Below are positions 14,697-62,971 of a DNA stretch of 64,000 nt, one piece after another. How positions within the stretch are numbered: the first letter of the stretch is position 1; each line of letters opens with the position of its first letter. This DNA is from Escherichia coli (GTDB lineage: Bacteria; Pseudomonadota; Gammaproteobacteria; Enterobacterales; Enterobacteriaceae), in the NCBI RefSeq assembly GCF_030013595.1, contig NZ_CP122771.1. One strand, written 5' to 3'. Made by a program: the position numbers and the translations under genes. The notes under the pieces are model-generated. The model saw nothing but the letters and a program-made list of their open reading frames with translations. It did not search any database and was not told the origin of the DNA.

Positions 14697-16056
14697 GCCT
14701 CTTTTTATTCTTTGTGCCGCCTTACTGACGGTGACGCCTGCAGCGTCAGCGGATGTGAACAGCGACATGAATCAGTTCTTTAACAAGCTGGGCTTCGCCT
14801 CCAATACCACACAGTCGGGCGTCTGGCAGGGGCAGGCTGCCGGCTATGCTTACGGCGGCTCCCTGTATGCCCGTACTCAGGTCAAAAATGTTCAGCTGAT
14901 TTCCATGACGCTGCCGGATATCAATGCCGGATGTGGCGGCATCGATGCCTACCTCGGTTCGTTCAGTTTTATTAATGGCGAGCAGCTGCAGCGTTTTGTT
15001 AAGCAGATTATGAGCAATGCTGCCGGTTACTTCTTTGACCTTGCCCTGCAGACAACGGTGCCGGAAATTAAAACCGCAAAAGACTTCCTGCAGAAAATGG
15101 CAAGCGACATTAACAGTATGAACCTCAGTTCCTGCCAGGCGGCGCAGGGGATTATCGGCGGGCTTTTCCCCCGGACGCAGGTGTCCCAGCAAAAAGTCTG
15201 TCAGGACATTGCCGGTGAGAGCAATATTTTTGCTGACTGGGCGGCTTCCCGGCAGGGATGTACCGTTGGCGGTAAATCTGACAGCGTCAGGGATAAAGCC
15301 AGCGACAAGGATAAGGAGCGGGTGACCAAAAACATTAACATCATGTGGAATGCGCTTTCCAAAAACAGAATGTTTGACGGCAACAAAGAGCTGAAAGAGT
15401 TTGTGATGACGCTGACCGGCTCACTGGTGTTTGGTCCCAACGGCGAAATCACACCGCTGTCGGCCAGAACCTCTGACCGCTCAATTATCCGGGCCATGAT
15501 GGAAGGCGGCACAGCAAAAATTTATCACTGCAACGATTCTGATAAATGCCTGAAAGTGGTGGCTGACACACCGGTGACCATCAGCCGGGATAATGCACTG
15601 AAGTCTCAGATTACTAAACTTCTGGCCAGCATTCAGAACAAAGCGGTCAGTGACACGCCTCTGGATGACAAGGAAAAAGGTTTTATTTCCAGTACCACCA
15701 TCCCCGTCTTCAAATACCTGGTTGACCCGCAGATGCTCGGTGTTTCCAACAGTATGATTTACCAGCTGACGGACTATATCGGTTACGACATCCTGCTGCA
15801 GTACATTCAGGAGCTGATACAGCAGGCCCGGGCGATGGTGGCCACGGGAAATTATGACGAAGCAGTTATCGAACATATTAACGACAATATGAATGATGCC
15901 ACCCGGCAGATTGCGGCGTTTCAGTCACAGGTGCAGGTACAGCAGGATGCGCTGCTGGTTGTCGATCGTCAGATGAGCTACATGCGTCAGCAGCTTTCCG
16001 CCCGCATGCTCAGTCGTTACCAGAACAACTATCACTTCGGAGGGAGCACACTGTGA
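14683..16056 (+). CDS. traH: TraH, pilus assembly protein
   Basis: 457 aa with signal peptide; synteny. Confidence 0.9.
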   Translation: MLRIKPLFILCAALLTVTPAASADVNSDMNQFFNKLGFASNTTQSGVWQGQAAGYAYGGSLYARTQVKNVQLISMTLPDINAGCGGIDAYLGSFSFINGEQLQRFVKQIMSNAAGYFFDLALQTTVPEIKTAKDFLQKMASDINSMNLSSCQAAQGIIGGLFPRTQVSQQKVCQDIAGESNIFADWAASRQGCTVGGKSDSVRDKASDKDKERVTKNINIMWNALSKNRMFDGNKELKEFVMTLTGSLVFGPNGEITPLSARTSDRSIIRAMMEGGTAKIYHCNDSDKCLKVVADTPVTISRDNALKSQITKLLASIQNKAVSDTPLDDKEKGFISSTTIPVFKYLVDPQMLGVSNSMIYQLTDYIGYDILLQYIQELIQQARAMVATGNYDEAVIEHINDNMNDATRQIAAFQSQVQVQQDALLVVDRQMSYMRQQLSARMLSRYQNNYHFGGSTL

Positions 16057-18875
16057 ATGAAGTTTATGTGATTGCCGGTGGTGAGTGGTTGCGGAATAAC
16101 CTGAATGCCATTGCCGCCTTTATGGGGACCCGGACGTGGGATTCCATTGAAAAAATTGCGCTCACATTGTCTGTTCTCGCGGTGGCCGTAATGTGGGTAC
16201 AGCGGCACAACGTGATGGATTTGCTGGGCTGGGTGGCCGTGTTTGTGCTTATCAGCCTACTGGTTAATGTCCGCACATCGGTGCAGATTATTGATAACAG
16301 TGACCTGGTCAAAGTTCACCGGGTGGATAATGTGCCGGTCGGACTGGCGATGCCACTTTCACTGACGACCCGTATCGGGCATGCAATGGTGGCCAGTTAC
16401 GAGATGATCTTCACGCAACCGGACAGTGTCACCTACAGCAAAACGGGGATGCTGTTTGGCGCAGAACTGGTATCAAAAAGCACCGACTTTTTGTCCCGTA
16501 ATCCGGAGATCGCCAATCTTTTCCAGGATTATGTGCAGAACTGCGTGATGGGGGATATTTACCTGAACCACAAATACACGCTGGAGGAACTGATGGCCTC
16601 CGCTGATCCTTACACGCTGATTTTTTCCCGCCCCAGTCCGCTGCGGGGCGTTTATGACAGCAATAATAATTTCGTGACCTGTAAGGACGCGTCGGTTTCG
16701 CTGAAAGACAAGCTGAATCTGGACACACAGAGTGGCGGAAAAACATGGCATTATTATGCCCAGCAGCTATTTGGTGGACGCCCTGATCCGAACCTGTTGT
16801 TCAGTACGCTGATTGGCGACAGTTACAGTTACTTCTATGGCTCAAGTAAATCAGCCAGCCAGATCATCCGCCAGAATGTCACCATCAATGCGCTGAAGGA
16901 GGGGATCACCAGTTATGCCGCACGTAATGGTGATTCGGCCAGCCTGGTGAATCTGGCCACCACATCATCGATGGAGAAGCAACGTCTGGCACATGTCTCC
17001 ATCGGTCATGTGGCGATGCGGACACTGCCCATGACGCAGACCATCCTGACGGGGATCGCCATCGGTATTTTCCCGCTCCTGGTACTGGCGGCTGTCTTCA
17101 ACAAACTGACGCTGTCCGTCCTGAAAGGCTATGTGTTTGCCCTGATGTGGTTGCAGTCATGGCCAATGTTGTACGCCATTCTGAACAGCGCCATGACATT
17201 TTATGCGAAGCAGAATGGTGCACCGGTGGTGCTCTCGGAAATTTCACAGATACAGCTGAAATACTCCGATCTGGCTTCCACTGCCGGGTATCTTTCCATG
17301 ATGATCCCGCCATTATCCTGGATGATGGTCAGGGGGCTCGGGGCAGGATTTTCCAGTGTGTACAGCCATTTCGCTTCCTCTGCTATCAGCCCGACCGCCA
17401 GTGCAGCAGGCAGTGTGGTTGACGGTAATTACTCCTACGGCAACATGCAGACGGAGAACGTGAACGGCTTCAGCTGGAGCACCAACAGCACCACGTCGTT
17501 TGGTCAGATGATGTACCAGACCGGCAGTGGCGCAACCGCCACACAGACCCGTGACGGTAATATGGTGATGGATGCAAGCGGAGCTATGTCCCGGTTACCG
17601 GTCGGCATCAATGCAACGCGTCAGATTGCGGCAGCACAACAGGAAATGGCCCGGGAAGCATCGAACAGAGCAGAAAGTGCCCTGCATGGTTTCAGCAGCA
17701 GTATTGCCAGTGCCTGGAACACGCTCAGTCAGTTTGGTTCTAACCGGGGGAGCAGTGACTCTGTCACCGGTGGTGCTGACAGTACGATGAGTGCACAGGA
17801 CTCCATGATGGCCAGCCGTATGCGCAGTGCAGTGGAAAGCTATGCGAAGGCGCATAATATCAGTAATGAGCAGGCGACTCAGGAACTGGCATCCAGAAGT
17901 ACGAGAGCTTCTGCCGGGATGTATGGAGATGCTCATGCTGAATGGGGGGTTAAACCTAAAATTCTTGGTGTTGGTGGCGGCTTAGGTGTTAAAGGTGGTG
18001 GTCGCGCTGGTATTGATTGGGAAGATAATGATGCGCATACGGCAAGTAGTAATACTCAGTCGAGCCATAATGCTCGTCATGATATCGATGCCAGAGCTAC
18101 ACAAGACTTTAAAGAGGCCAGCGATTACTTTACCAGTCGCAAGGTCAGTGAGTCCGGCAGCCATACTGACAATAATGCTGATTCCCGTGTGGATCAGTTG
18201 TCTGCAGCCCTGAATTCAGCGAAGCAGAGTTACGACCAGTTCACGACGAATATGACCCGCAGCCATGAATATGCTGAAATGGCATCCCGTACTGAAAGCA
18301 TGAGTGGGCAGATGAGTGAAGACTTGTCGCAACAGTTTGCACAGTATGTAATGAAACACGCGCCACAGGATGCAGAAGCTATTCTGACAAACACCAGTTC
18401 ACCGGAGATTGCAGAACGTCGTCGGGCGATGGCCTGGTCTTTTGTGCAGGAACAGGTACAGCCTGGTGTTGATAATGCCTGGCGGGAATCCCGTGGCGAT
18501 ATTGGTAAAGGAATGGAGAGCGTACCTTCGGGTGGTGGCAGTCAGGATATTATTGCTGACCATCAGGGACATCAGGCCATTATTGAGCAAAGAACGCAGG
18601 ACAGTAATATCCGTAATGATGTAAAACATCAGGTTGATAATATGGTCACAGAATATAAAGGGAATATAGGTGATACTCAGAACAGCATACGTGGCGAGGA
18701 AAATATTGTAAGAGGACAGTATTCTGAGCTGCAGAATCACCATAAAACAGAGGCATTATCTCAGGATAATAAATATAATGAAGAAAAGTCGGCTCAGGAA
18801 AGAATGCCCGGGGCTGACAGTCCACAGGAACTTATGAAAAGGGCAAAGGAATATCAGGATAAGTATAAGCAATAA
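16053..18875 (+). CDS. traG: TraG, mating-pair stabilisation and entry exclusion target (VirB6-like N-terminal domain)
   Basis: 940 aa, polytopic N-terminal half and hydrophilic C-terminal half; synteny. Confidence 0.9.
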   Translation: MNEVYVIAGGEWLRNNLNAIAAFMGTRTWDSIEKIALTLSVLAVAVMWVQRHNVMDLLGWVAVFVLISLLVNVRTSVQIIDNSDLVKVHRVDNVPVGLAMPLSLTTRIGHAMVASYEMIFTQPDSVTYSKTGMLFGAELVSKSTDFLSRNPEIANLFQDYVQNCVMGDIYLNHKYTLEELMASADPYTLIFSRPSPLRGVYDSNNNFVTCKDASVSLKDKLNLDTQSGGKTWHYYAQQLFGGRPDPNLLFSTLIGDSYSYFYGSSKSASQIIRQNVTINALKEGITSYAARNGDSASLVNLATTSSMEKQRLAHVSIGHVAMRTLPMTQTILTGIAIGIFPLLVLAAVFNKLTLSVLKGYVFALMWLQSWPMLYAILNSAMTFYAKQNGAPVVLSEISQIQLKYSDLASTAGYLSMMIPPLSWMMVRGLGAGFSSVYSHFASSAISPTASAAGSVVDGNYSYGNMQTENVNGFSWSTNSTTSFGQMMYQTGSGATATQTRDGNMVMDASGAMSRLPVGINATRQIAAAQQEMAREASNRAESALHGFSSSIASAWNTLSQFGSNRGSSDSVTGGADSTMSAQDSMMASRMRSAVESYAKAHNISNEQATQELASRSTRASAGMYGDAHAEWGVKPKILGVGGGLGVKGGGRAGIDWEDNDAHTASSNTQSSHNARHDIDARATQDFKEASDYFTSRKVSESGSHTDNNADSRVDQLSAALNSAKQSYDQFTTNMTRSHEYAEMASRTESMSGQMSEDLSQQFAQYVMKHAPQDAEAILTNTSSPEIAERRRAMAWSFVQEQVQPGVDNAWRESRGDIGKGMESVPSGGGSQDIIADHQGHQAIIEQRTQDSNIRNDVKHQVDNMVTEYKGNIGDTQNSIRGEENIVRGQYSELQNHHKTEALSQDNKYNEEKSAQERMPGADSPQELMKRAKEYQDKYKQ

Positions 18876-18890: not shown

Positions 18891-19376
18891 ATGATAATGA
18901 GATGTTTAACCCATATTGCTCTGGTAGCGGTGATACAGTTTATCGCCTGTTATCTGGCTGGTTGGGAGAATGCCGAAACAATTTTTATGCTGTTCTTCAT
19001 AGTACTATGGCAGGGACTGTTTATATGGTTGTTCTCTCAAATACGAAAAAAACGGAATGTGTCGGATGAGTTTAAGTTTAGTAAAGGCGTTTGGTATATA
19101 ACGATGCCAGTATCTTCCTTACTCTCTCCATTATTAAGCCTGATGGTTTTTATCATTGGTACACTATACGAATTAAGGCGAGTTAGTGGTTGTGTAAGTG
19201 TAAGAGAATGGATGCAATCTCAGGTAAATGAACAAACTAATGAAGATTTGCATCTGGATTTTGATAATATGGATTTTCATCGTACTAATCCTGCAACAGG
19301 ATTACCTATGTCAGGTATTGGTGTGGATATCGGTGGTAATTCATATGGTTATTGTTCAAAACGATATGATGAGTGA
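18891..19376 (+). CDS. traS: TraS, entry exclusion inner-membrane protein
   Basis: 161-aa hydrophobic AT-rich ORF between traG and traT; assigned by position. Confidence 0.65.
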   Translation: MIMRCLTHIALVAVIQFIACYLAGWENAETIFMLFFIVLWQGLFIWLFSQIRKKRNVSDEFKFSKGVWYITMPVSSLLSPLLSLMVFIIGTLYELRRVSGCVSVREWMQSQVNEQTNEDLHLDFDNMDFHRTNPATGLPMSGIGVDIGGNSYGYCSKRYDE

Positions 19377-19424: not shown

Positions 19425-20156
19425 ATGAAAATGAAAAAATTGATGATGGTTGCACTGGTCAGTTCCACTCTGGCCCTTTCAGGGTGTGGTGCGATGAGCA
19501 CAGCAATCAAGAAGCGTAACCTTGAGGTGAAGACTCAGATGAGTGAGACCATCTGGCTTGAACCCGCCAGCGAACGCACGGTATTTCTGCAGATCAAAAA
19601 CACGTCTGATAAAGACATGAGTGGGCTGCAGGGCAAAATTGCTGATGCTGTGAAAGCAAAAGGATATCAGGTGGTGACTTCTCCGGATAAAGCCTACTAC
19701 TGGATTCAGGCGAATGTGCTGAAGGCCGATAAGATGGATCTGCGGGAATCTCAGGGATGGCTGAACCGTGGTTATGAAGGCGCAGCAGTTGGTGCAGCGT
19801 TAGGTGCCGGTATCACCGGATATAATTCCAGTTCTGCCGGTGCCACACTCGGTGTGGGCCTTGCTGCCGGTCTGGTGGGTATGGCTGCAGATGCGATGGT
19901 GGAAGATGTGAACTATACCATGATCACGGATGTGCAGATTGCAGAGCGTACTAAGGCAACGGTGACAACGGATAATGTTGCCGCCCTGCGTCAGGGCACA
20001 TCAGGTGCGAAAATTCAGACCAGTACTGAAACAGGTAACCAGCATAAATACCAGACCCGTGTGGTCTCAAATGCGAACAAGGTTAACCTGAAATTTGAAG
20101 AGGCGAAGCCTGTTCTCGAAGACCAGCTGGCCAAATCAATCGCAAATATTCTCTGA
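19425..20156 (+). CDS. traT: TraT, surface exclusion/serum-resistance lipoprotein
   Basis: Lipobox LALSGCGAM; matches F TraT. Confidence 0.9.
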
Positions 20157-20192
20157 ACCTCGTCAGGAGGCTGGTCTGACCGGCCTCCTTGC

Positions 20193-20252
20193 TGACGCCT
20201 CGCGTTGCTCGTTGTCCAACCCCGGGACGTAACAAAATAAATTTTGTCACTT
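20193..20252. repeat. Conserved hairpin-containing intergenic motif, copy 1 (second copy at 32239-32312)
   Basis: Shared flanks tgacgcctcgcgttgctc-ttgtccaaccccggga ... cccggcgtttc; outer stem ccggga/tcccgg retained, inner stem differs between copies. Confidence 0.6.
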
Positions 20253-20358
20253 CCCGGCGTTTCCGAAATAAATATGAAAACACTGAGCGGTTGTGCAAAT
20301 TCTTTGTGCGACCGTGAAGTGTTGCCGGCGAAGCCGGGATCTTCCGGAGAAAGTCATT

Positions 20359-21096
20359 ATGACATCAGACAATATCGCTGAATATGTTGGTGAGAATAAT
20401 CAATTTACTGAGAAGCCTGTAACTGAATACCCCCCGGTGATACAGGATAATACAGTGACCACTAAAGACTATCTGTACAGCAATAATATTGATACTGACC
20501 TTTTAGTGGTTATCGGAGGGCTTATTGTTATATTGTTTCTCATGATGCTTATCATGTACTTTATTAATTCTCTCAGGCATAAGGAATTAACTGAAATACT
20601 GACAAAAATATCTTTTCCTGAAAAATCCGGGAGCAATTCGCTTAAACCGGAAGCGGTCAGCTGTAATTTGTTGTCCCTGTGTGTGCTGGCACCGGTATTC
20701 TTTACACCCAGAAAGCTGGCTGAAGTTTCCAGGGAGATCATCGTGGCGAGTGCGCAGGAAATTGCATGGACGCCGGGGAGCAGTCGTATTGATGGCCACC
20801 AGGCGGAGAATATCACCTGGGCGATTTCATCGCAGTCTCCTGCCGATAAGTATGATCTCATCAATAAAACCTCCCGTGTTTCTCCTGACAGTGGCCGTTT
20901 TTATGAACCGGACACAGTTCTGGATCACCGTGAACGGGTACGCCTTTTTATTCAGATCCAGTTTCCGCATGGGAGTGACTGGTCTGAAGTATTGCGCCTG
21001 ACTGACATTGTTACAGAGAAGGTCTCTTCCGGCAGGGCTGCAGGCGGGTATCACCACCGACATACAGGGTACACCTGGTCTGTTTCTGTGAATTAA
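20359..21096 (+). CDS. Hypothetical membrane-anchored protein inserted between traT and traD
   Basis: 246 aa from ATG 20359 with one TM helix ([22 protein letters not shown]); GGAG-type RBS; not part of canonical F gene order. Confidence 0.4.
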
Positions 21097-21146
21097 CCCC
21101 ACATCATCCTTTTCTGCCCTGTTCCAGATTTTCCCGGAGTTTCATC

Positions 21147-23372
21147 ATGAGTTTTAACGCAAAGGATATGACCCAGGGCGGTCAGATTGCGTCCATGCGT
21201 ATCCGCATGTTCAGCCAGATCGCCAATATCATGCTTTACTGCCTGTTTATTTTTTTCTGGATACTCGTTGGTCTGATTTTATGGGTAAAAATAAGCTGGC
21301 AGACGTTTGTGAACGGCTGTATTTACTGGTGGTGTACCACGCTGGAAGGCATGCGGGATTTAATCAAGTCCCAGCCAGTATATGAGATCCAGTATTACGG
21401 CAAAACCTTCCGGATGAACGCGGCTCAGGTACTGCATGATAAATACATGATCTGGTGCGGTGAGCAGCTATGGTCCGCATTCGTTCTGGCGTCTGTCGTG
21501 GCCCTGGTTATTTGCCTGATTACCTTCTTTGTTGTTTCCTGGATTCTGGGGCGTCAGGGTAAACAACAGAGCGAAAATGAAGTCACAGGTGGTCGTCAGC
21601 TGACAGACAATCCGAAAGATGTTGCCCGGATGCTGAAAAAAGACGGCAAGGACTCCGATATCCGGATTGGCGACCTGCCGATTATCCGAGATTCCGAAAT
21701 CCAGAACTTCTGTCTGCACGGCACAGTCGGGGCCGGTAAGTCGGAGGTTATCCGTCGTCTGGCCAACTACGCCCGTAAGCGTGGTGATATGGTGGTGATT
21801 TATGACCGTTCAGGGGAATTTGTTAAAAGTTACTATGATCCCTCCATCGATAAAATCCTGAATCCGCTGGATGCCCGCTGTGCCGCATGGGATTTGTGGA
21901 AGGAGTGCCTGACACAGCCGGATTTTGATAATACCGCGAACACGCTGATCCCTATGGGTACAAAAGAGGACCCGTTCTGGCAGGGGTCAGGACGTACCAT
22001 TTTTGCGGAAGCGGCGTACCTGATGCGTAATGACCCCAACCGCAGCTACAGCAAACTGGTGGACACACTGCTTTCCATCAAAATCGAAAAACTGCGTACC
22101 TTCCTGCGTAATTCACCGGCAGCCAACCTGGTGGAAGAGAAAATTGAGAAAACGGCGATTTCCATCCGTGCTGTGCTGACCAACTACGTGAAAGCCATCC
22201 GTTACCTGCAGGGGATTGAGCATAACGGTGAGTCTTTTACCATCCGTGACTGGATGCGTGGTGTCCGGGAAGATCAGAAAAACGGCTGGCTGTTTATCTC
22301 GTCGAATGCCGACACCCATGCCTCCCTGAAGCCGGTGATCTCCATGTGGCTGTCCATTGCCATTCGTGGTCTGCTGGCAATGGGAGAAAACCGTAATCGT
22401 CGTGTGTGGTTTTTCTGTGACGAGTTACCCACGTTACACAAACTGCCGGACCTGGTGGAGATCCTGCCGGAAGCCCGTAAGTTCGGTGGCTGTTATGTGT
22501 TTGGTATCCAGTCCTATGCCCAGCTGGAAGATATCTACGGTGAGAAAGCGGCGGCCACGCTGTTTGACGTCATGAACACCCGTGCCTTTTTCCGTTCTCC
22601 CAGCCATAAGATTGCAGAGTTCGCTGCCGGTGAAATTGGTGAGAAAGAGCACCTGAAAGCCAGCGAGCAGTATTCCTACGGTGCTGACCCGGTACGTGAC
22701 GGGGTATCGACCGGTAAGGATATGGAGCGTCAGACGCTGGTCAGTTATTCCGACATTCAGTCTCTGCCGGATCTGACCTGTTATGTCACTCTGCCCGGAC
22801 CGTATCCGGCAGTCAAACTCTCTCTGAAATATCAGGCACGTCCGAAGGTTGCCCCGGAGTTTATTCCGCGTGACATCAACCCGGAAATGGAGAACCGTCT
22901 GAGTGCCGTACTTGCCGCAAGGGAAGCAGAAGGTCGCCAGATGGCCAGCCTCTTCGAACCGGAGGTTGCCTCCGGAGAAGGCGTGACTCAGGCTGAACAG
23001 CCACAACAGCCACAACAGCCACAACAGCCACAACAGCCACAACAGCCACAACAGCCACAACAGCCACAACAGCCACAACAGCCACAACAGCCAGTGTCTT
23101 CTGTCATCAATGATAAGAAGTCAGATGCAGGTGTGAGTGTTCCGGCAGGGGGGATCGAGCAGGAGCTGAAAATGAAACCGGAAGAAGAGATGGAACAGCA
23201 ACTGCCACCCGGGATCAGTGAATCCGGTGAAGTGGTGGATATGGCCGCTTATGAGGCATGGCAACAGGAAAATCATCCGGACATCCAGCAGCATATGCAG
23301 CGTCGTGAAGAGGTGAACATTAATGTACACCGGGAGCGCGGGGAGGATGTTGAGCCGGGAGATGATTTCTGA
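21147..23372 (+). CDS. traD: TraD, type IV coupling protein
   Basis: 741 aa; N-terminal TM helices; Walker [10 protein letters not shown]; C-terminal QQP repeat tract. Confidence 0.95.
22998..23093 (+). repeat. 9-bp tandem repeat (cagccacaa, about 10 units) encoding the (QPQ)n tract of TraD
   Basis: Direct reading of the sequence. Confidence 0.9.
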
Positions 23373-26300
23373 TGTTGAGTTTCAGCGTTGTTAAATCGGC
23401 AGGCAGTGCCGGAAACTATTACACCGACAAGGATAATTACTATGTGCTGGGCAGCATGGGAGAACGCTGGGCTGGTCAGGGGGCTGAACAGCTTGGGCTG
23501 CAGGGCAGCGTCGATAAGGATGTTTTTACCCGTCTTCTGGAGGGCAGGCTGCCGGACGGAGCGGATTTAAGCCGCATGCAGGATGGCAGTAATAAGCATC
23601 GTCCCGGCTACGACCTGACCTTCTCCGCCCCCAAAAGTGTCTCCATGATGGCCATGCTCGGGGGGGATAAACGTCTTATTGATGCACATAACCAGGCCGT
23701 GGATTTTGCTGTCCGTCAGGTGGAGGCGCTGGCTTCCACACGGGTGATGACGGACGGACAGTCAGAAACGGTGCTGACCGGTAATCTGGTGATGGCACTG
23801 TTTAACCATGACACCAGTCGCGATCAGGACCCACAGTTACACACGCATGTGGTGGTGGCTAATGTCACGCAGCATAATGGCGAGTGGAAGACACTGAGCA
23901 GTGACAAAGTGGGGAAAACCGGATTTTCCGAGAACGTGCTCGCGAACCGGATTGCGTTCGGGAAAATATATCAGAGTGAGTTACGTCAGCGCGTTGAGGC
24001 GCTGGGTTATGAAACCGAAGTGGTCGGTAAGCACGGTATGTGGGAGATGCCGGGCGTACCGGTGGAGGCCTTTTCCAGTCGTTCACAGGCTATCAGGGAG
24101 GCCGTCGGTGAAGACGCCTCGCTGAAATCCCGGGATGTGGCGGCGCTGGATACGCGTAAATCCAAACAGCACGTCGATCCGGAAATCAGAATGGCTGAAT
24201 GGATGCAGACGCTGAAGGAAACCGGGTTCGACATCCGGGCATATCGTGACGCGGCGGATCAGCGTGCGGAGATCCGCACGCTGACGCCCGGGCCTGCTTC
24301 ACAGGACGGGCCGGATGTGCAGCAGGCGGTGACACAGGCGATTGCCGGATTAAGTGAACGAAAAGTGCAGTTCACGTACACGGACGTGCTGGCCAGAACG
24401 GTCGGCATACTGCCGCCGGAAAATGGTGTGATTGAACGGGCACGCGCCGGTATCGATGAGGCCATCAGCCGTGAGCAGCTTATCCCCCTCGACCGTGAGA
24501 AGGGGCTGTTCACGTCCGGGATTCATGTGCTCGATGAGCTGTCAGTCCGGGCACTCAGTCGTGACATCATGAAACAGAACCGGGTGACCGTACATCCGGA
24601 GAAAAGTGTTCCCCGGACGGCCGGTTACAGCGATGCCGTCAGCGTGCTGGCACAGGATCGCCCGTCGCTGGCCATTGTGTCCGGGCAGGGCGGTGCAGCC
24701 GGGCAGCGTGAGCGGGTGGCTGAACTGGTCATGATGGCCCGGGAGCAGGGGCGGGAGGTGCAGATTATCGCTGCTGACCGTCGCTCGCAGATGAACATGA
24801 AGCAGGATGAGCGTCTGTCCGGTGAGCTGATAACCGGGCGGCGTCAGCTGCTGGAGGGCATGACCTTCACGCCGGGCAGTACCGTTATCGTCGACCAGGG
24901 CGAAAAACTCTCCCTGAAAGAGACGTTAACTCTGCTGGACGGTGCCGCACGGCATAACGTACAGGTCCTGATAATCGACAGCGGGCAGCGGACCGGTACC
25001 GGCAGTGCGCTGATGGCCATGAAGGATGCCGGAGTGAACACATATCGCTGGCAGGGGGGAGAACAGCGACCGGCAACCATCATCAGTGAACCGGACCGTA
25101 ATGTCCGCTATGCCCGGCTGGCCGGAGATTTTGCGGTCAGCGTGAAAGCCGGAGAAGAGAGCGTGGCGCAGGTCAGTGGAGTACGGGAACAGGCCATGCT
25201 GACTCAGACCATTCGCAGTGAGCTGAAAACACAGGGCGTACTCGGACATCCGGAGGTGACCATGACCGCGCTGTCACCGGTCTGGCTGGACAGCCGGAGT
25301 CGTTATCTGCGGGATATGTACCGCCCGGGGATGGTGATGGAGCAGTGGAACCCGGAGACACGCAGTCATGACCGCTATGTGATAGACCGGGTGACGGCGC
25401 AGAGTCACAGCCTGACCCTGCGGGATGCGCAGGGCGAAACGCAGGTGGTGCGTATTTCCTCCCTGGACAGCAGCTGGTCGCTGTTCCGGCCGGAAAAAAT
25501 GCCGGTGGCAGACGGCGAGCGACTGAGGGTGACCGGGAAAATTCCCGGACTCCGAGTCTCCGGCGGTGACCGCCTGCAGGTGGCATCCGTCAGTGAAGAT
25601 GTGATGACGGTTGTTGTGCCGGGGCGGGCTGAACCGGCCTCCCTGCCTGTGAGCGATTCACCGTTCACGGCACTGAAGCTGGAGAATGGCTGGGTGGAAA
25701 CGCCCGGGCATTCCGTCAGCGACAGTGCGAAGGTTTTTGCCTCCGTCACACAGATGGCAATGGACAAGGCCACCCTGAACGGTCTGGCCCGCAGTGGTCG
25801 TGATGTCCGGCTGTATTCCTCACTGGATGAAACCCGTACTGCGGAAAAACTTGCCCGCCATCCGTCCTTTACGGTGGTTTCTGAGCAGATAAAGGCGCGG
25901 GCCGGTGAGACATCGCTGGAAACGGCTATCAGTCATCAGAAGTCCGCACTTAACACACCGGCACAGCAGGCCATTCATCTTGCCCTTCCGGTGGTGGAAA
26001 GTAAAAACCTGGCCTTCAGCCATGTGGACCTGCTGACAGAGGCAAAGTCGTTTGCTGCAGAAGGAACCAGTTTTGCTGACCTGGGGCGGGAAATCAATGC
26101 GCAGATAAAACGCGGTGACTTACTGTATGTGGATGTGGCAAAAGGCTATGGCACAGGCCTGCTGGTTTCCCGTGCGTCGTATGAGGCAGAAAAGAGCATT
26201 CTTCGCCATATTCTCGAAGGTAAGGAGGCGGTCACGCCGCTGATGGAGAGAGTACCTGGCGAACTCATGGAGAAACTGACATCAGGACAGCGTGCCGCCA

Positions 26301-28642
26301 CCCGCATGATACTGGAAACGTCCGACCGTTTCACGGTGGTGCAGGGCTATGCCGGTGTGGGTAAGACCACACAGTTCCGGGCGGTGATGTCAGCCGTGAA
26401 CATGCTGCCGGAGAGTGAGCGTCCCCGTGTCGTTGGGCTGGGCCCCACGCACCGTGCGGTCGGGGAGATGCGCAGCGCCGGCGTGGATGCACAGACACTG
26501 GCGTCCTTTCTGCATGACACGCAGCTGCAGCAGCGCAGCGGAGAAACGCCGGATTTCAGCAACACGCTGTTTCTGCTCGATGAGAGCTCAATGGTGGGCA
26601 ATACCGACATGGCACGGGCATACGCCCTGATTGCGGCCGGTGGTGGTCGTGCCGTGGCCAGCGGTGACACGGACCAGCTGCAGGCCATCGCGCCCGGTCA
26701 GCCTTTCCGTCTCCAGCAGACGCGCAGTGCTGCCGATGTGGTCATCATGAAGGAGATTGTGCGCCAGACGCCGGAGCTGCGGGAGGCGGTATACAGCCTG
26801 ATTAACCGGGATGTGGAAAGGGCACTGTCCGGGCTTGAGAGTGTGAAACCGTCTCAGGTGCCACGTCAGGAGGGCGCATGGGTACCGGAGCACTCCGTGA
26901 CGGAGTTCAGTCACAGCCAGGAAGCGAAACTGGCAGAAGCGCAGCAGAAGGCGATGCTGAAAGGTGAGGCTTTTCCGGATATTCCCATGACACTGTATGA
27001 AGCCATTGTCCGCGATTATACCGGCAGGACGCCGGAAGCACGGGAGCAGACGCTGATTGTCACGCATCTGAATGAGGACCGGCGCGTACTGAACAGCATG
27101 ATTCATGATGCACGGGAAAAGGCCGGTGAGCTGGGAAAAGAGCAGGTCATGGTGCCTGTCCTGAACACAGCGAATATACGCGACGGGGAGTTGCGTCGTC
27201 TCTCCACCTGGGAGACACATCGGGACGCACTTGCCCTGGTGGATAATGTGTATCACCGGATTGCCGGTATCAGCAAGGATGACGGGCTGATAACTCTGCA
27301 GGATGCGGAAGGTAACACGCGGCTGATTTCGCCCCGGGAGGCGGTGGCTGAAGGCGTCACACTGTACACTCCGGACACCATCCGGGTGGGAACCGGTGAC
27401 CGGATGCGCTTCACGAAGAGTGACCGGGAGCGCGGTTATGTGGCCAACAGCGTCTGGACGGTGACAGCGGTTTCCGGTGACAGTGTCACGCTGTCGGACG
27501 GACAGCAGACCCGGGTGATTCGCCCCGCCCAGGAGCAGGCAGAGCAACATATTGACCTGGCCTATGCCATCACCGCCCACGGTGCGCAGGGGGCGAGTGA
27601 AACCTTTGCCATTGCGCTTGAAGGCACGGAAGGTAACCGGAAACTGATGGCCGGCTTTGAGTCAGCCTACGTGGCCCTGTCGCGTATGAAGCAGCATGTG
27701 CAGGTGTACACCGATAATCGTCAGGGCTGGACGGATGCCATTAACAATGCCGTACAGAAAGGAACTGCCCACGATGTGCTGGAGCCGAAACCGGACCGGG
27801 AGGTCATGAATGCAGAGCGGCTGTTCAGTACGGCGCGGGAGCTGCGGGACGTGGCGGCAGGGCGTGCCGTTCTTCGTCAGGCGGGGCTTGCCGGGGGAGA
27901 CAGTCCTGCACGGTTTATTGCACCGGGACGTAAATATCCACAGCCGTATGTGGCACTGCCGGCGTTTGACCGTAACGGCAAATCAGCCGGTATCTGGCTG
28001 AACCCGCTGACCTCGGATGACGGAAACGGGCTGCGGGGATTCAGCGGTGAAGGCCGTGTGAAAGGCAGCGGGGATGCGCAGTTCGTGGCCCTGCAGGGCA
28101 GCCGTAACGGAGAAAGCCTGCTGGCTGATAATATGCAGGAGGGTGTCCGGATTGCCCGTGATAATCCTGACAGCGGTGTGGTGGTAAGAATCGCCGGTGA
28201 AGGCCGTCCGTGGAATCCCGGTGCCATCACCGGTGGCCGCGTGTGGGGGGATATCCCGGACAACAGCGTCCAGCCGGGAGCCGGAAATGGCGAGCCGGTC
28301 ACGGCAGAGGTACTGGCACAGCGGCAGGCTGAAGAGGCCATCCGCCGTGAAACGGAACGCCGTGCGGATGAAATTGTCCGTAAAATGGCAGAGAACAAAC
28401 CTGACCTGCCGGATGGCAAAACAGAGCAGGCTGTCAGGGAGATTGCCGGGCAGGAGCGTGACCGGGCTGCCATAACTGAACGGGAAGCCGCGCTGCCGGA
28501 GAGTGTGCTGCGTGAATCACAACGGGAGCGGGAAGCGGTCCGGGAGGTTGCCCGGGAAAATCTGCTGCAGGAGCGTCTGCAGCAGATGGAGCGGGATATG
28601 GTTCGTGACCTGCAGAAAGAGAAAACCCTGGGCGGAGACTGA
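23372..28642 (+). CDS. traI: TraI, relaxase/DNA helicase I
   Basis: 1756 aa; N-terminal relaxase with HxH motif (HTHVV) and C-terminal helicase with P-loop (GYAGVGKTT). Confidence 0.95.
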   Translation: MLSFSVVKSAGSAGNYYTDKDNYYVLGSMGERWAGQGAEQLGLQGSVDKDVFTRLLEGRLPDGADLSRMQDGSNKHRPGYDLTFSAPKSVSMMAMLGGDKRLIDAHNQAVDFAVRQVEALASTRVMTDGQSETVLTGNLVMALFNHDTSRDQDPQLHTHVVVANVTQHNGEWKTLSSDKVGKTGFSENVLANRIAFGKIYQSELRQRVEALGYETEVVGKHGMWEMPGVPVEAFSSRSQAIREAVGEDASLKSRDVAALDTRKSKQHVDPEIRMAEWMQTLKETGFDIRAYRDAADQRAEIRTLTPGPASQDGPDVQQAVTQAIAGLSERKVQFTYTDVLARTVGILPPENGVIERARAGIDEAISREQLIPLDREKGLFTSGIHVLDELSVRALSRDIMKQNRVTVHPEKSVPRTAGYSDAVSVLAQDRPSLAIVSGQGGAAGQRERVAELVMMAREQGREVQIIAADRRSQMNMKQDERLSGELITGRRQLLEGMTFTPGSTVIVDQGEKLSLKETLTLLDGAARHNVQVLIIDSGQRTGTGSALMAMKDAGVNTYRWQGGEQRPATIISEPDRNVRYARLAGDFAVSVKAGEESVAQVSGVREQAMLTQTIRSELKTQGVLGHPEVTMTALSPVWLDSRSRYLRDMYRPGMVMEQWNPETRSHDRYVIDRVTAQSHSLTLRDAQGETQVVRISSLDSSWSLFRPEKMPVADGERLRVTGKIPGLRVSGGDRLQVASVSEDVMTVVVPGRAEPASLPVSDSPFTALKLENGWVETPGHSVSDSAKVFASVTQMAMDKATLNGLARSGRDVRLYSSLDETRTAEKLARHPSFTVVSEQIKARAGETSLETAISHQKSALNTPAQQAIHLALPVVESKNLAFSHVDLLTEAKSFAAEGTSFADLGREINAQIKRGDLLYVDVAKGYGTGLLVSRASYEAEKSILRHILEGKEAVTPLMERVPGELMEKLTSGQRAATRMILETSDRFTVVQGYAGVGKTTQFRAVMSAVNMLPESERPRVVGLGPTHRAVGEMRSAGVDAQTLASFLHDTQLQQRSGETPDFSNTLFLLDESSMVGNTDMARAYALIAAGGGRAVASGDTDQLQAIAPGQPFRLQQTRSAADVVIMKEIVRQTPELREAVYSLINRDVERALSGLESVKPSQVPRQEGAWVPEHSVTEFSHSQEAKLAEAQQKAMLKGEAFPDIPMTLYEAIVRDYTGRTPEAREQTLIVTHLNEDRRVLNSMIHDAREKAGELGKEQVMVPVLNTANIRDGELRRLSTWETHRDALALVDNVYHRIAGISKDDGLITLQDAEGNTRLISPREAVAEGVTLYTPDTIRVGTGDRMRFTKSDRERGYVANSVWTVTAVSGDSVTLSDGQQTRVIRPAQEQAEQHIDLAYAITAHGAQGASETFAIALEGTEGNRKLMAGFESAYVALSRMKQHVQVYTDNRQGWTDAINNAVQKGTAHDVLEPKPDREVMNAERLFSTARELRDVAAGRAVLRQAGLAGGDSPARFIAPGRKYPQPYVALPAFDRNGKSAGIWLNPLTSDDGNGLRGFSGEGRVKGSGDAQFVALQGSRNGESLLADNMQEGVRIARDNPDSGVVVRIAGEGRPWNPGAITGGRVWGDIPDNSVQPGAGNGEPVTAEVLAQRQAEEAIRRETERRADEIVRKMAENKPDLPDGKTEQAVREIAGQERDRAAITEREAALPESVLRESQREREAVREVARENLLQERLQQMERDMVRDLQKEKTLGGD

Positions 28643-28661
28643 TACAGGAAGACAAACACTG

Positions 28662-29408
28662 ATGACAACGGATAACACGAACACGACACGTAACGATTCA
28701 CTGGCTGCCCGGACCGATACCTGGTTGCAGTCGTTTCTGGTCTGGTCACCCGGACAGCGGGATATCATCAAAACGGTGGCACTGGTGCTGATGGTACTGG
28801 ACCACATCAATCTGATATTCCAGCTGAAGCAGGAATGGATGTTTCTGGCCGGGCGTGGAGCCTTTCCGCTGTTTGCCCTGGTGTGGGGGCTGAATCTGTC
28901 CCGTCATGCGCATATCCGGCAACCGGCCATTAACCGGCTGTGGGGATGGGGGATTATTGCCCAGTTCGCATATTATCTGGCAGGCTTTCCCTGGTATGAG
29001 GGGAATATCCTGTTTGCCTTTGCAGTGGCGGCACAGGTGCTGACGTGGTGTGAAACGCGCAGTGGGTGGCGTACAGCAGCGGCCATTCTTCTGATGGCGC
29101 TGTGGGGGCCTTTGTCCGGCACCAGTTACGGCATTGCCGGGCTGCTGATGCTGGCAGTCAGCCACCGGCTGTACCGGGCGGAAGACAGAGCGGAACGTCT
29201 GGCGCTGGTCGCCTGCCTGCTGGCTGTTATTCCGGCGCTTAACCTTGCCACCAGTGATGCAGCGGCGGTGGCCGGTCTTGTGATGACGGTGCTGACCGTT
29301 GGTCTGGTGTCGTGTGCAGGAAAATCATTACCCCGTTTCTGGCCCGGGGATTTTTTCCCGGTATTCTACGCCTGTCATCTGGCTGTGCTGGGCGTTCTGG
29401 CGCTGTGA
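28662..29408 (+). CDS. traX: TraX, pilin N-acetylase
   Basis: ATG at 28662 (MTTDNTNTTRNDSLAAR...); polytopic membrane protein; synteny. Confidence 0.85.
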   Translation: MTTDNTNTTRNDSLAARTDTWLQSFLVWSPGQRDIIKTVALVLMVLDHINLIFQLKQEWMFLAGRGAFPLFALVWGLNLSRHAHIRQPAINRLWGWGIIAQFAYYLAGFPWYEGNILFAFAVAAQVLTWCETRSGWRTAAAILLMALWGPLSGTSYGIAGLLMLAVSHRLYRAEDRAERLALVACLLAVIPALNLATSDAAAVAGLVMTVLTVGLVSCAGKSLPRFWPGDFFPVFYACHLAVLGVLAL

Positions 29409-29462
29409 CGGGTGTGGTATCTTTGACCGCAAGAGGATGATTCGTCAGAGGCAGAACACAGC

Positions 29463-30023
29463 ATGACAGAGCAGAAGCGACCGGTACTGACACTGAAGCG
29501 GAAAACGGAAGGGGAGACGCCTGTCCGCAGGCGGAAAACCATCATCAATGTCACCACGCCACCAAAGTGGAAGGTGAAAAAGCAGAAGCTGGCCGAGAAA
29601 GCAGCCCGGGAAGCAGAGCTGGCGGCAAAAAAAGCGCAGGCCAGACAGGCACTGTCCATTTATCTGAATCTGCCCACGCTGGATGAGGCCGTGAATACCC
29701 TGAAACCCTGGTGGCCGGGATTGTTTGACGGTGACACGCCCCGGCTTCTGGCCTGCGGTATCCGGGACGTGTTACTGGAAGACGTGGCGCAGCGGAATAT
29801 CCCGCTCTCGCATAAAAAACTGCGCAGGGCGCTGAAGGCCATCACCCGTTCAGAAAGCTATCTGTGTGCCATGAAAGCCGGTGCCTGCCGGTATGACACG
29901 GAAGGGTATGTGACGGAGCATATTTCTCAGGAGGAGGAAGCGTATGCGGCAGCGCGTCTGGATAAAATCCGCCGCCAGAACCGGATAAAGGCAGAACTTC
30001 AGGCCGTGCTTGATGAGAAATAA
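29463..30023 (+). CDS. finO: FinO, fertility-inhibition RNA chaperone (apparently intact)
   Basis: 186 aa, basic N-terminus; matches R100 FinO; uninterrupted. Confidence 0.9.
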
Positions 30024-30145
30024 AAAAAAGCCTCCATCAGAGAGGAGGCAGGGAAATAAGGCTTAAAAGGAAATAACTTCCGTACCCGAAAGGAAGCCAA
30101 TTCAGTAGATTATTTAACACCATAATACTGACGGGTTAAAGAGGA

Positions 30146-30367
30146 GTGATAAAGATGAATGGATTCAGAAACAGTTCACGGAACGGTCAGGTCTGGTGCT
30201 GGCAGCGTGCCGGAAGCCGGGCCGTTATTCTGGAAGTCAGTGGTCGCTGGATGGAAGCGGCAGAAGCATGGCGACGGGCTGCCAGTGTTGCACCCCGGAC
30301 AGACTGGCAGCAGTTTGCCCGAAAAAGGGCTGAACACTGCCACCGGCGCTGCCGGGGAAGGGTGTAA
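30146..30367 (+). CDS. Hypothetical small basic protein
   Basis: 73-aa ORF downstream of finO; coding status uncertain. Confidence 0.3.
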   Translation: MIKMNGFRNSSRNGQVWCWQRAGSRAVILEVSGRWMEAAEAWRRAASVAPRTDWQQFARKRAEHCHRRCRGRV

Positions 30368-30653
30368 CGAAAAAAGCAGCCTTCATTACTCCAGGTATTC
30401 AGAAGGCTGAATAATGCATGAGATTTTTCTTTTTTATATCTGGCCTGGCAGTATGACCAGTCAGCAGTCATTATCACAGGATTATTGCTGTATTAAGTAA
30501 TAGCGTGCTGTTTTGTGATTGATTTCATAAAACAAGACGTCGTTTAATATGCGCCTGAATATTCACGAGGGAAGTCTTTCTTTTTATATGGTGCTCCCGG
30601 AAATAAAATATTTTTTGTTATTGCTCACCCTGTTATGAATAAAAGGTAAAAAC

Positions 30654-31331
30654 ATGGAAGAAAATAATACGAGTACAGATAAAAACACCCTGACAGCCCT
30701 TATTGATTATGAAAACTGTGGCAGCCTGAAAAATATTTCCCTTGAGCAGTATGGGGAACTGATTATTTTTGTCGGGCCACAGCAGAACGTCGTTGTTCTT
30801 CCTGCAGACTCTTTTCCTGAAGGTGCGAGAATCACTATCAGGCAGGTGAGTGGTGTGTCCAGGAATAATGTCGATTTTCATCTTGTTCTGGAGCTGGGGC
30901 GGATAAGCTGTTGTGCAGCAGGGAAAGATAAAACATACCACATCATTTCATCGGATAAGGGATATGACGGTGTTATCAGGACGCTGAAAGAAGCCGGTAT
31001 TACCTGCATTCGTCGTGATGTACCGGAAAGTATTGCTGCTGCCGGTGAGTCTGGTGCAGACAAAAGTAACTGCCTGAAACAACCTTCTGTTCCTGAAAGT
31101 GATATCGTCAGCCGTTGGGCAGGAAAGCTGCAGCAGATAGCCGGCAGCGGAGCCGGTAATATGCCTGTGTCCGTCGAAACATTTAATAATTATTTAAAGT
31201 CACACATGCGTGACGAATGGAACAAAACCCGGGCAGTGGCGATAAGGAATGAACTGGTTCGTCGGGGAGTCACAGAAGTCAGGGAGAAAAAGATAATCTG
31301 GAAAAAGGCGAAAAAGGAGAATAAAGCATGA
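30654..31331 (+). CDS. NYN/PIN-like (LabA-type) nuclease-fold protein
   Basis: 225 aa; N-terminal IDYENC and later SSDKGYDGVIRTLKEAG resemble NYN signature positions; AT-rich promoter region upstream. Confidence 0.5.
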   Translation: MEENNTSTDKNTLTALIDYENCGSLKNISLEQYGELIIFVGPQQNVVVLPADSFPEGARITIRQVSGVSRNNVDFHLVLELGRISCCAAGKDKTYHIISSDKGYDGVIRTLKEAGITCIRRDVPESIAAAGESGADKSNCLKQPSVPESDIVSRWAGKLQQIAGSGAGNMPVSVETFNNYLKSHMRDEWNKTRAVAIRNELVRRGVTEVREKKIIWKKAKKENKA

Positions 31332-31647
31332 GGTATCGCAGCTGTGCTCAGATAAAAACAGCCCCCGTTGCGGTTGCGGAGCGAAGGGGGCTGAAAAGGG
31401 GAATTAAGGATGATTGTTATTATGGTGAACCAGAAGGTTATCCCTGTCTGTAAGCTGAATCGGACTAAACGACATAATACCTGTAACATCACTGAAACAT
31501 CAGCGGTATATGTGGTGTGTATGAATATCCCGGCAGCATTAATTCTTCTGTGAGGAAATGCATTGATAAGAAACAGAATAAGTCGGTGGTAAGGAAAATG
31601 AATTTATTAATTCAGTATCCGTTTATCAGATAAAAAAGGGAAAGAGT

Positions 31648-32241
31648 ATGGTGAAACTGATTATTTTTATTCTCATTGTTCTGATTATTGCAGCGTTACT
31701 TATCCGGATTATCCTCAGAAGTGTAAATCAGCATTCTCCTTTGCTGATGCAATTGCATGCGGCAGGTATACGGACCGGTGATGCAGAGCGAATACTGTCC
31801 AGCGGTGAATACTGGCAACGTCAGAAGACGCTGCTGACAGAAAGGGAAGTCAGTTTTATGAAAGGACTGTTCAGAATTGTGGATATGAAGCGGTGGTATC
31901 TGTGTCCGCAGGTACGGGTCGCGGATATCGTCCAGCTGAACGAGAATATCCGGCCACGATCACGCCAGTGGTGGCAGTTATTCAGAATGGTGTCTCAGTG
32001 GCATGTTGATGTGGTTATCGTTGAGCGGCGTTCGTTCAGTATTGTTGCAGCAGTAGAGCTGGATGATGCCAGCCATTTACGACCGGAACGCAGACGCCGG
32101 GATATTCTTCTGGAAGAGGTTCTGAGGCAGGCTGGTATTCCGTTGCTCAGAAGCCACGATGCCAGAAAACTGCTGCAGATGACCGGAGAATGGCTGAATA
32201 CAACAGGGGCTGATCAGCAGTCCCCGGAACATCGTAGCTGA
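31648..32241 (+). CDS. Membrane-anchored DUF2726-like (restriction-endonuclease-fold) protein
   Basis: 197 aa; N-terminal TM helix; HVDVVIVER...AVELDD resembles a PD-(D/E)xK-type core. Confidence 0.5.
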   Translation: MVKLIIFILIVLIIAALLIRIILRSVNQHSPLLMQLHAAGIRTGDAERILSSGEYWQRQKTLLTEREVSFMKGLFRIVDMKRWYLCPQVRVADIVQLNENIRPRSRQWWQLFRMVSQWHVDVVIVERRSFSIVAAVELDDASHLRPERRRRDILLEEVLRQAGIPLLRSHDARKLLQMTGEWLNTTGADQQSPEHRS

Positions 32242-32312
32242 CGCCTTCGCGTTGCTCAGTTGTCCAACCCCGGGAGCGGGAAAAAGCAAGTTTTCCCCGC
32301 TCCCGGCGTTTC
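32239..32312. repeat. Conserved hairpin-containing intergenic motif, copy 2
   Basis: Shares flanks with 20193-20252; perfect stem ccgggagcggg/cccgctcccgg; partial third copy (gacgccttcg) at 32889-32898. Confidence 0.6.
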
Positions 32313-32395
32313 TGTAATAAAAAACGGGAAATGGTGGTCACAGAGTAAATGCCGGAACCACCTGTACCCAAACTTTATATAATAATGGTGAATAT

Positions 32396-32860
32396 ATGAA
32401 ATATGATGATGTATCAGAATTGATGATTAAGCGTGAACACAATATTCTTATTATGGGGAATTCTGCCTCCCACATTGATAAATTTTTTAAGGGATATTCT
32501 ATACCAGGTTCTAAATATTATGATTTCACTCAGATTAACAGTGATTCAGATGTAGAGAGAAATGAGCATGCTGTCTCATTTATCAGGGATGCAATGAATA
32601 GTGAAGAGCACACAATCATTTTTAATTGTGTTGGGTGGCATGATTTAGGTGGTGGATCAGCAGTATCACAGTTTGCAATGATGGTCAGAAAATTTGGTAA
32701 ACAACTTATTGTCGCTGTAAGTGAAAAGGATGCCATCAAATTAAAAGATAACTTTAATATTATTGGAACGTTGTCATATGGTAAAGAAAATTTTATTGCC
32801 ATGAGTCATACGAAAAGCGAGTTAACTGGAGGGAAATGTCGGTACCGGATTAAAAATTGA
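32396..32860 (+). CDS. Hypothetical protein, degenerate-P-loop paralog of ORF 7994-8455
   Basis: 154 aa; aligns with 7994-8455 product (ELM, ILI.G, YY.F..NS, TLILDGV/TIIFNCVG, KRLVVVA/KQLIVAV) but Walker A replaced by GNSASHIDK; AT-rich. Confidence 0.45.
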   Translation: MKYDDVSELMIKREHNILIMGNSASHIDKFFKGYSIPGSKYYDFTQINSDSDVERNEHAVSFIRDAMNSEEHTIIFNCVGWHDLGGGSAVSQFAMMVRKFGKQLIVAVSEKDAIKLKDNFNIIGTLSYGKENFIAMSHTKSELTGGKCRYRIKN

Positions 32861-33116
32861 TGTAAATAAAAAGCATACTTATTGGCTGGAGTGACGCCTT
32901 CGTGCTTCTGTAGTAAAAAGCGGGAAAGGCAGGTAATAGTCAGCAACAGGGAATGTGGTATTATCGCGGCGGGTGTCTGAGCCTTTCTGGTTCAGGCAAG
33001 ACGCAGGTACCAGAAATGCGAAGACCCCACTCGTTAATCCATTAACTCGTGAGGCCTGCATGAAGTACCTTAACACTACTGATTGTAGCCTCTTCCTTGC
33101 AGAGAGGTCAAAGTTT

Positions 33117-62779: not shown

Positions 62780-62882
62780 AAAAGAATTAAAAGTTGATTT
62801 ACTTCAAATAACAGGATTTTGATCTGGTTCAATTTGATGACAATTAACCACATAAAGGGTATATTAATTATGTGGTTAATGC

Positions 62883-62965
62883 CACGTTAAAAATTTAGTT
62901 TAAATCGCCGATGCAGGGAGAGCGACCTCCCTGCATCGACTGTCCATAGAATCCTTTGAGAGGAG
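62883..62965 (-). ncRNA. finP: FinP antisense RNA region (approximate)
   Basis: Perfect hairpin cgatgcagggag-agcga-cctccctgcatcg in the traJ 5' leader just before the traJ RBS. Confidence 0.55.
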
Positions 62966-62971
62966 GTTCCT

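Follow-up and report, generated by a model that had tools for sequence, protein, structure and literature searches.

The transfer operons of F-like plasmids raise a simple question at the junction of traT and traD: which gene separates the two in some plasmids, and what could it contribute to conjugation or to the plasmid that carries it? We examined this on a stretch of 64,000 nucleotides of Escherichia coli DNA (assembly GCF_030013595.1, contig NZ_CP122771.1; hereafter the window), which comes from an F-like plasmid (MOBF/MPF_F) and in which the traT-traD intergenic interval corresponds exactly to positions 20157-21146. The open reading frame (ORF) in this interval is yhfA of plasmid R100. 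IncF plasmids are the main carriers of extended-spectrum beta-lactamase and virulence genes in E. coli, and yhfA is a very common tra-operon gene of these clinically dominant plasmids that also occurs in R100 and other classical model plasmids. Few tra-operon genes without an assigned role keep their position across distant F-like lineages as yhfA does. As a finding the gene is ordinary, being a known and annotated hypothetical gene; new here are the settled coding strand, a sister clade that shares the slot, the prediction that the conserved domain is cytoplasmic and a lead to a palm-like fold.

Identity and distribution of yhfA

Over its full length the predicted protein matches R100 YhfA (gene at NC_002134, 75462-76199; protein WP_000199905.1), with 240 of 245 residues identical (98%) and no gaps. 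R100 yhfA differs by five substitutions and is found at the same traT-traD position, in the same flanking non-coding sequence; residue 115 is phenylalanine in the window protein and cysteine in R100 and in 9 of the 10 sequences of this clade (clade 1). The coding sequence (CDS) starts with ATG at 20359 and stops at 21094-21096, giving 245 amino acids. An earlier note on this DNA correctly described an ORF with one transmembrane (TM) helix in the gap, but its length of 246 amino acids had counted the stop codon. The same CDS is called by the Prokaryotic Genome Annotation Pipeline (PGAP) in the identical plasmid NZ_CP122686.1 and in pO26_2.

Family members are named 'YhfA' or 'Conjugative transfer protein' in UniProt and AFDB, and in E. 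coli genomes every listed match with an annotated feature beneath it is a 'hypothetical protein'. The chromosomal yhfA gene of E. coli is presumably unrelated and shares the name by coincidence. Our literature search for a published function of yhfA returned annotations only. Ochi et al. 2009 reported a 'conserved hypothetical protein YhfA', homologous to R100 YhfA, and the F plasmid as having no similar ORF (PMC2762410). A preprint on ST131 plasmids gives a co-variation link between traC and yhfA, which is a weak lead (10.64898/2025.12.08.692488).

A megablast search of PLSDB with the traT-traD interval gave 4029 matching plasmids, 1770 of which (~44%) cover at least 80% of the query and carry yhfA; the remaining matches mostly comprise the first ~180 nucleotides (nt) after traT alone. 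Among complete E. coli genomes, the gene is present in 1209 of 5426 (about a fifth), and 1398 of its 1402 copies are located on plasmids. The order traT-yhfA-traD was found in seven fetched loci with 48-98% identity (R100, pO26_2, L006, L008-L010 and L012) and also in L014-L017, and in L011 yhfA is directly upstream of traD, with no traT called. An exhaustive hidden Markov model search of 1.84 billion representative proteins recovered the YhfA family, its truncated or frameshifted copies and a distant fragment (P0139) only, and a word-indexed protein search likewise returned family members, many of them truncated or frameshifted copies. The family is restricted to F-like plasmids, with a fixed position just upstream of traD. 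The window gene belongs to it by full-length similarity, by its place between traT and traD in the same orientation and by purifying selection. What the earlier note had regarded as an extra gene is not an unusual insertion but the classical R100 yhfA, an already annotated gene that is neither unusual nor new. In line with the note it is a real plus-strand membrane-protein gene, which some F-like plasmids have and F lacks. Taken jointly, the identity of the gene, its coding strand, its conservation, its synteny and its dispensability are established with near certainty.

Coding strand and selection

Coding properties were compared for yhfA from six diverged plasmids (48-89% amino-acid identity) plus pO26_2. 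The plus frame is uninterrupted in all homologues compared and stays open at 29-50% identity. According to the Nei-Gojobori method, the ratio of nonsynonymous to synonymous divergence (dN/dS) of this frame is 0.2-0.48 for the whole gene, 0.13-0.26 for the C-terminal 145 codons and 0.24-0.57 for the N-terminal 100 codons. For the same plasmid pairs dN/dS is 0.02-0.08 in traT and mostly 0.08-0.10 in traD, the exception being a distant clade-2 pair with dS near saturation. Purifying selection on yhfA is real but weaker than on its neighbours.

The coding strand had been left uncertain in the earlier note, according to which missing conservation in related plasmids or better coding statistics on the opposite strand would speak against the gene. 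The ORF is conserved, and the opposite strand has the worse coding evidence, which settles the matter for the plus strand. The competing minus-strand ORF does exist in the window (131 amino acids), but it begins with TTG, its frame contains 2-5 stops in all six diverged homologues as compared to one terminal stop in the window, it has no NCBIfam family and it is not called by PGAP in NZ_CP122686.1 or pO26_2; the possibility that it is the true gene is already refuted by the stops in the homologues and may be dismissed.

Protein layout, predicted topology and fold

YhfA has an N-terminal tail, a single TM helix and a conserved C-terminal domain (Table 1). The tails of P0029, P0076 and P0140 are unrelated in sequence and have the same layout. 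The TM helix is the only confident segment of a full-length AlphaFold2 (AF2) model, which has a predicted local distance difference test score (pLDDT) of 39.8. A weaker hydrophobic segment at residues 99-117 (mean hydropathy 1.7) is a predicted beta-strand of the C-terminal domain and not a TM helix. In all members the helix is followed by a basic flank (RHK or similar) and a short linker, and the acidic tail and the basic flank after the helix are found in 12 of 12 sequences. Because of the positive-inside rule the tail is predicted to be periplasmic and the domain cytoplasmic; a cytoplasmic domain also fits because several of its cysteines are not conserved between the clades. The earlier note had suggested a surface function, which is unlikely, as for each of the clades the rule predicts that the conserved domain is cytoplasmic.

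The C-terminal domain contains the residues that are invariant in both clades (W137, P139, G140, S142, R143, D145, Q148, N151, T153, R195, L196, I200, Q201, A228, G229, G230, G237, Y238, T239 and W240). When modelled separately, with the sister clade added to the alignment, the domain reached a pLDDT of 76.4 and a predicted template modelling score (pTM) of 0.77, with the element order beta-alpha-beta-beta-(loop)-beta-alpha-beta. The best fold matches of this model in the PDB are Cas10 and GGDEF palm domains, and the non-catalytic 'GGDEF-like' domains of CdaR/PucR regulators are among the near known systems. The GG(D/E)EF or GGDD signature of GGDEF, Cas10 and class III nucleotide-cyclase palms is absent in YhfA, where the corresponding beta2-beta3 hairpin ends in -x-E-N-I-T-W. 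Palm domains have a metal-binding aspartate at the end of beta1, whereas beta1 of YhfA ends in the invariant A111-P112. Pfam has no model that matches the window protein with E <= 10 or any of the 12 members with E <= 0.001, and when the PDB was searched by sequence with the domain profile, chance matches alone came up (E >= 0.2). Because the catalytic palm signatures are absent and no Pfam model matches, the domain is not filed as a GGDEF or cyclase member; the model suggests that it is palm-like (ferredoxin-like) in shape only. A bitopic inner-membrane protein with a cytoplasmic domain of this fold is, as a joint prediction, probable.

A sister clade in the same slot, and dispensability

The sole distant match of the exhaustive search, P0139, is a twice-frameshifted copy that was repaired by hand and then used as a lead to a sister clade. 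This clade, represented by P0140 (230 amino acids, 675 member sequences), occurs on F-like plasmids of E. coli and E. marmotae. P0140 has 29% identity to the window protein (BLASTP, 9e-27) and its host plasmids represent a distinct F-like lineage, with TraD 46% and TraT 80% identical to those of the window. The P0140 gene likewise occupies the traT-traD interval, where a DUF2726 gene separates it from traD. Like the window protein, P0140 has an acidic tail, one TM helix, a basic flank and the conserved domain, and the two share the motifs WxPGxSRxDGxQxxNxT, RLxxQIQ, AGG and GYTW; the clade-1 domain begins with three cysteines that P0140 does not conserve. The slot is kept across distant lineages, which therefore suggests that yhfA is old in F-like tra operons and was later lost from F-type plasmids.

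The gene is dispensable. It is absent from the F-type plasmids p1658/97 and pMAR2 and from a pSLT-like plasmid, and L009, which has yhfA, and pMAR2, which lacks it, carry the same alleles of TraS (95% identity) and TraD (96%). Truncated YhfA clusters (P0017, P0006 and P0051) include a 180-amino-acid form lacking the tail and the TM helix (P0017, 921 member sequences); a further truncated form of 219 amino acids starts at residue 27 (230 member sequences), and pEntH10407 has a copy truncated by an insertion sequence. These variants suggest that the gene is often disrupted in successful plasmid lineages. P0029 (L008, 3001-3735) is an intragenic mosaic, with ~100 unrelated N-terminal codons (dS saturated) and a nearly identical C-terminal domain (dS 0.22), and the module of tail and TM helix appears to be exchanged between yhfA alleles.

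Possible function of YhfA

Whereas yhfA is a genuine but dispensable and fairly fast-evolving member of the distal tra operon in many F-like plasmids, its role can be proposed only tentatively. In the explanation that we prefer, YhfA would be a bitopic inner-membrane protein with an acidic, variable, periplasmic tail, one TM helix and a basic juxtamembrane flank, and its conserved alpha/beta domain of ~145 amino acids would adopt a ferredoxin-like or palm-like fold in the cytoplasm, with no catalytic motifs of a nucleotide cyclase. Its proposed role is that of an accessory or modulatory factor of the donor cell, placed on the cytoplasmic side of the inner membrane beside the coupling protein TraD and the ATPases of the type IV secretion system (T4SS), where it would work by binding a protein or ligand and not by catalysis. 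An association with TraD or the T4SS is proposed because TraD and the T4SS ATPases sit at this face of the membrane. As a whole, this explanation has a probability of roughly 0.4, and its functional part, a non-catalytic modulator of the transfer apparatus in the donor, is somewhat doubtful when taken by itself.

The F tra operon offers a parallel in its small, non-essential inner-membrane proteins, such as TraP and the products of several trb genes. As in the case of YhfA, their genes lie within the operon and point the same way, the proteins are membrane-associated, transfer does not require them, and their presence varies from one F-like plasmid to another. These small products are reportedly covered in the 1994 review of Frost, Ippen-Ihler and Skurray. 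Comparison by means of Pfam models gave no sequence relationship of YhfA to any tra or trb family.

Several points weigh against a donor-side role. F transfers efficiently without yhfA, because of which any such role could at most be modulatory. The adjacency to traD is equally an adjacency to traS and traT, and no experiment, named homologue or domain model backs any function of YhfA; sequence searches with YhfA in NCBIfam, PADLOC, PHROGs and the PDB were empty too. The topology is derived from the positive-inside rule only, and the alignment behind the AF2 domain model is shallow (12 sequences) and gave five models of pLDDT 51-76. Finally, in the same plasmid pairs yhfA has a dN/dS 3-5 times as high as traT and traD, and both this rate and the exchange of the N-terminal module between alleles would also fit a role in conflict or specificity.

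One such role would be in the potential recipient. There, YhfA of a resident plasmid could act as a third exclusion or barrier factor beside TraS and TraT that lessens redundant entry of related plasmids or lethal zygosis. The gene follows directly after traS and traT, its product is like TraS an inner-membrane protein, and the GC content of its 5' part (39-42%) is similar to that of traS. The highly variable tail, helix and linker that are swapped as a module, and the faster evolution of yhfA as compared to traT and traD, are in line with this role as well. Eex of the SXT/R391 integrative conjugative elements, reportedly studied by Marrero and Waldor, is a small inner-membrane exclusion protein with its specificity region in the cytoplasm, where the conserved domain of YhfA is predicted to lie, and it illustrates how such a role could work; in YhfA, however, the variable part is the N-terminal module and not the cytoplasmic C-terminus, and the likeness is one of description, with no homology expected. 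On the other hand, exclusion by F is complete with TraS and TraT alone, and the presence of yhfA does not track the exclusion type, because the same TraS allele occurs with and without it. The conserved part of YhfA is the predicted cytoplasmic domain, which leaves a tail of ~46 amino acids as the only part predicted to be exposed, and the N-terminal dN/dS does not exceed 1. YhfA has no Pfam or NCBIfam match to TraT (PF05818), annotated TraS or an entry-exclusion family. The exclusion-related function suggested in the earlier note is not favoured by anything tested, and we consider this role unlikely.

We think it similarly improbable that YhfA is cargo with no relation to DNA transfer, such as a defence or anti-defence protein or an abortive-infection sensor directed against male-specific or other phages, in a permissive traT-traD hotspot. 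The slot is indeed polymorphic in length (see below), yhfA is dispensable and often truncated, and the Cas10 and GGDEF palms that the domain model resembles are signalling domains common in defence systems. In addition, the DUF2726 protein that follows the yhfA-like gene in the sister clade (L015, 7700-8203) is 40% identical to the DUF2726 protein of the window (PGAP 'DUF2726 domain-containing protein'), the gene of which adjoins an NYN-domain gene. However, the catalytic palm motifs are absent in YhfA, the R100-type arrangement has no adjacent effector, and the family was never found anywhere but in the traT-traD slot of F-like plasmids, although changes of genomic context are usual for defence genes. 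In PADLOC and PHROGs no model matches YhfA, P0140 or P0076 with a meaningful E value; PADLOC-DB 2.0 has no family for the window protein or P0076, and P0140 matches in its TM region only (E = 0.032). Nothing that was tested favours the defence function proposed in the earlier note.

If YhfA modulates TraD/T4SS activity, exclusion or phage sensitivity, it could help to explain differences in transfer between F-type and R100-type plasmids.

The structured region downstream of traT

The spacer between traT and traD was compared, as the earlier note had proposed, by aligning the window with p1658/97, pMAR2 and the pSLT-like plasmid. The ~185 nt after traT (20157-20340) are common to all four aligned plasmids. 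Beyond 20340 the sequences diverge until the last few bases before the traD ATG, and the diverged segment is ~50 nt in the F-type plasmids, ~170 nt in the pSLT-like plasmid and ~800 nt, including yhfA, in the window. The slot is thus polymorphic, but the motif preceding yhfA is not specific to it.

The common part includes two hairpins and a recurring motif. The sequence after hairpin 1 is TGCTGACG and that after hairpin 2 is CGTTTCCGAAAT; a terminator scan flagged neither, and no T-run follows either of them. A GC-rich hairpin directly after traT is therefore present as described in the earlier note, while its designation as the traT terminator is unproven, with no T-run and no flag from the scan. 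The recurrence of the motif, also described there, is real: pairwise alignment of the copies gives GCTGACGCC(T)TCGCGTTGCTC(A)GTTGTCCAACCCCGG-hairpin-CCGGCGTTTC in both (~75 nt), and the chance expectation of its 21-mer is 0.01. In the long hairpin, three pairs keep their pairing via changes on both sides (11 sequences). The motif is not tied to the inserted gene, since the same ~185 nt follow traT in yhfA-less plasmids; it is part of the universal traT 3' region. The second copy lies at the stop codon of the window DUF2726 gene. This position, together with the DUF2726 gene in the traT-traD slot of the sister clade, may be the trace of an old rearrangement that linked both regions.

The ~80 nt from 20262 to 20340 are far better conserved than the surrounding coding sequence in all F-like plasmids examined, including the pSLT-like one. 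RNA folding of 20150-20362 gave a z-score of -6.55. In Rfam no family reached the gathering score in 20100-21200 or 32200-32330, with a chance-level microRNA match only (E = 0.7).

The strong structure and near-invariance of this region, the compensatory changes in the long hairpin and the common truncated and frameshifted copies of yhfA would all be compatible with a spacer in which RNA or DNA is the functional unit, serving traT 3' processing, termination or control of traD, with an ORF that is incidental or decaying. However, the conserved structured RNA stops at 20340, before the ORF, and occurs without yhfA, and purifying selection acts on the protein that the gene encodes, with many more synonymous than replacement changes per site. 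This selection and the frame that stays open in distant homologues largely refute an RNA-only function of the slot, which we regard as very improbable.

Transcription, start site and gene order

Sites found by a promoter scan are no commoner than after shuffling of the sequence, and the conserved 20262-20340 has none; a promoter of its own is not supported for yhfA. Because no promoter stands out upstream, read-through from the traT region most likely accounts for the transcription of yhfA. Two other reading frames were rejected. A longer yhfA starting with GTG at 20293 (267 amino acids) would add 22 codons that are non-coding sequence kept in yhfA-less plasmids, and the homologues start at the aligned methionine. 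A small ORF at 20274 (MKTLSGC...) has no Shine-Dalgarno sequence, and conservation there extends to third codon positions.

The features of the locus are collected in Table 1. In the alignment, yhfA-less plasmids share no more of the spacer between yhfA and traD than the ~8 nt directly before the traD ATG. The traS-type gene has no NCBIfam match. Several yhfA plasmids have a minus-strand gene call of 102-103 amino acids in the traG-traT slot, in place of traS (L008 1661-1969, L010 1572-1883 and L012 1659-1970); either these plasmids have another exclusion gene there or the strand was called wrongly. The 3' part of traD (22434-23087) contains a (CAGCCG)n repeat encoding QQP, and traD is polymorphic in length, with 2226 nt in the window and 2334 nt in the otherwise identical NZ_CP122686.1.

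Table 1. Coordinates of the traT-traD locus and associated features in the window
Feature	Position	Strand	Basis or remark
traG	16053-18875	+	Gene order in window
traS-type gene	18891-19376	+	Between traG and traT
traT (complement-resistance/surface-exclusion lipoprotein), upstream neighbour	19425-20156	+	ORF list; PGAP annotation of identical plasmid mapped to window
Hairpin 1, 12-bp GC-rich inverted repeat without U-tract	20165-20189	+	Inverted repeat; in minimum-free-energy fold; kept in yhfA-less plasmids
Recurring motif, copy 1: short and long hairpin, conserved GC clamp, variable compensated upper stem	20193-20270	+	
Hairpin 2, long	20218-20261	+	Inverted repeat
Near-invariant structured non-coding stretch, hairpins 20279-20323 and 20325-20337	20262-20340	+	Spacer alignment; yhfA/no-yhfA polymorphism starts at its 3' end
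Shine-Dalgarno GGAG of yhfA	20346-20349	+	9 nt upstream of ATG; read in sequence
yhfA CDS	20359-21096	+	ORF list; PGAP CDS WP_069199865.1; 245 amino acids + stop
N-terminal tail (residues 1-47), acidic, variable, predicted periplasmic	20359-20499	+	2 K/R vs 9 D/E
Antisense ORF, spurious, 131 amino acids, TTG start	20469-20864	-	ORF list; frame broken in homologues
Single TM helix (residues 48-66)	20500-20556	+	Mean Kyte-Doolittle hydropathy 3.2 over 19 residues
C-terminal alpha/beta domain (residues 102-245), conserved, predicted cytoplasmic	20662-21093	+	
yhfA-traD spacer, 50 nt, with traD Shine-Dalgarno GGAG	21097-21146	+	Sequence; specific to yhfA allele
traD (type IV coupling protein), downstream neighbour	21147-23372	+	ORF list; PGAP
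traI	23372-28642	+	Gene order in window
Recurring motif, copy 2	32237-32312	+	Overlaps TAG stop (32239-32241) of DUF2726 gene 31648-32241; RNA fold z = -4.95

Downstream of finO, a run of accessory genes (28600-32900) encodes a small hypothetical protein, the NYN-domain protein, the DUF2726 protein and a hypothetical protein of 154 amino acids; the latter three have no match in NCBIfam. Rfam matches on the minus strand include the antisense RNA AS-pc02 (30264-30447) and, at 56997-59295, domains of a group II intron (RF00029 and group-II-D1D4-7), which indicate that the plasmid has an insertion of such an intron. The window further contains, according to Rfam, two hok/sok loci, CopA, and FinP and the traJ 5' untranslated region at 62870-62978.

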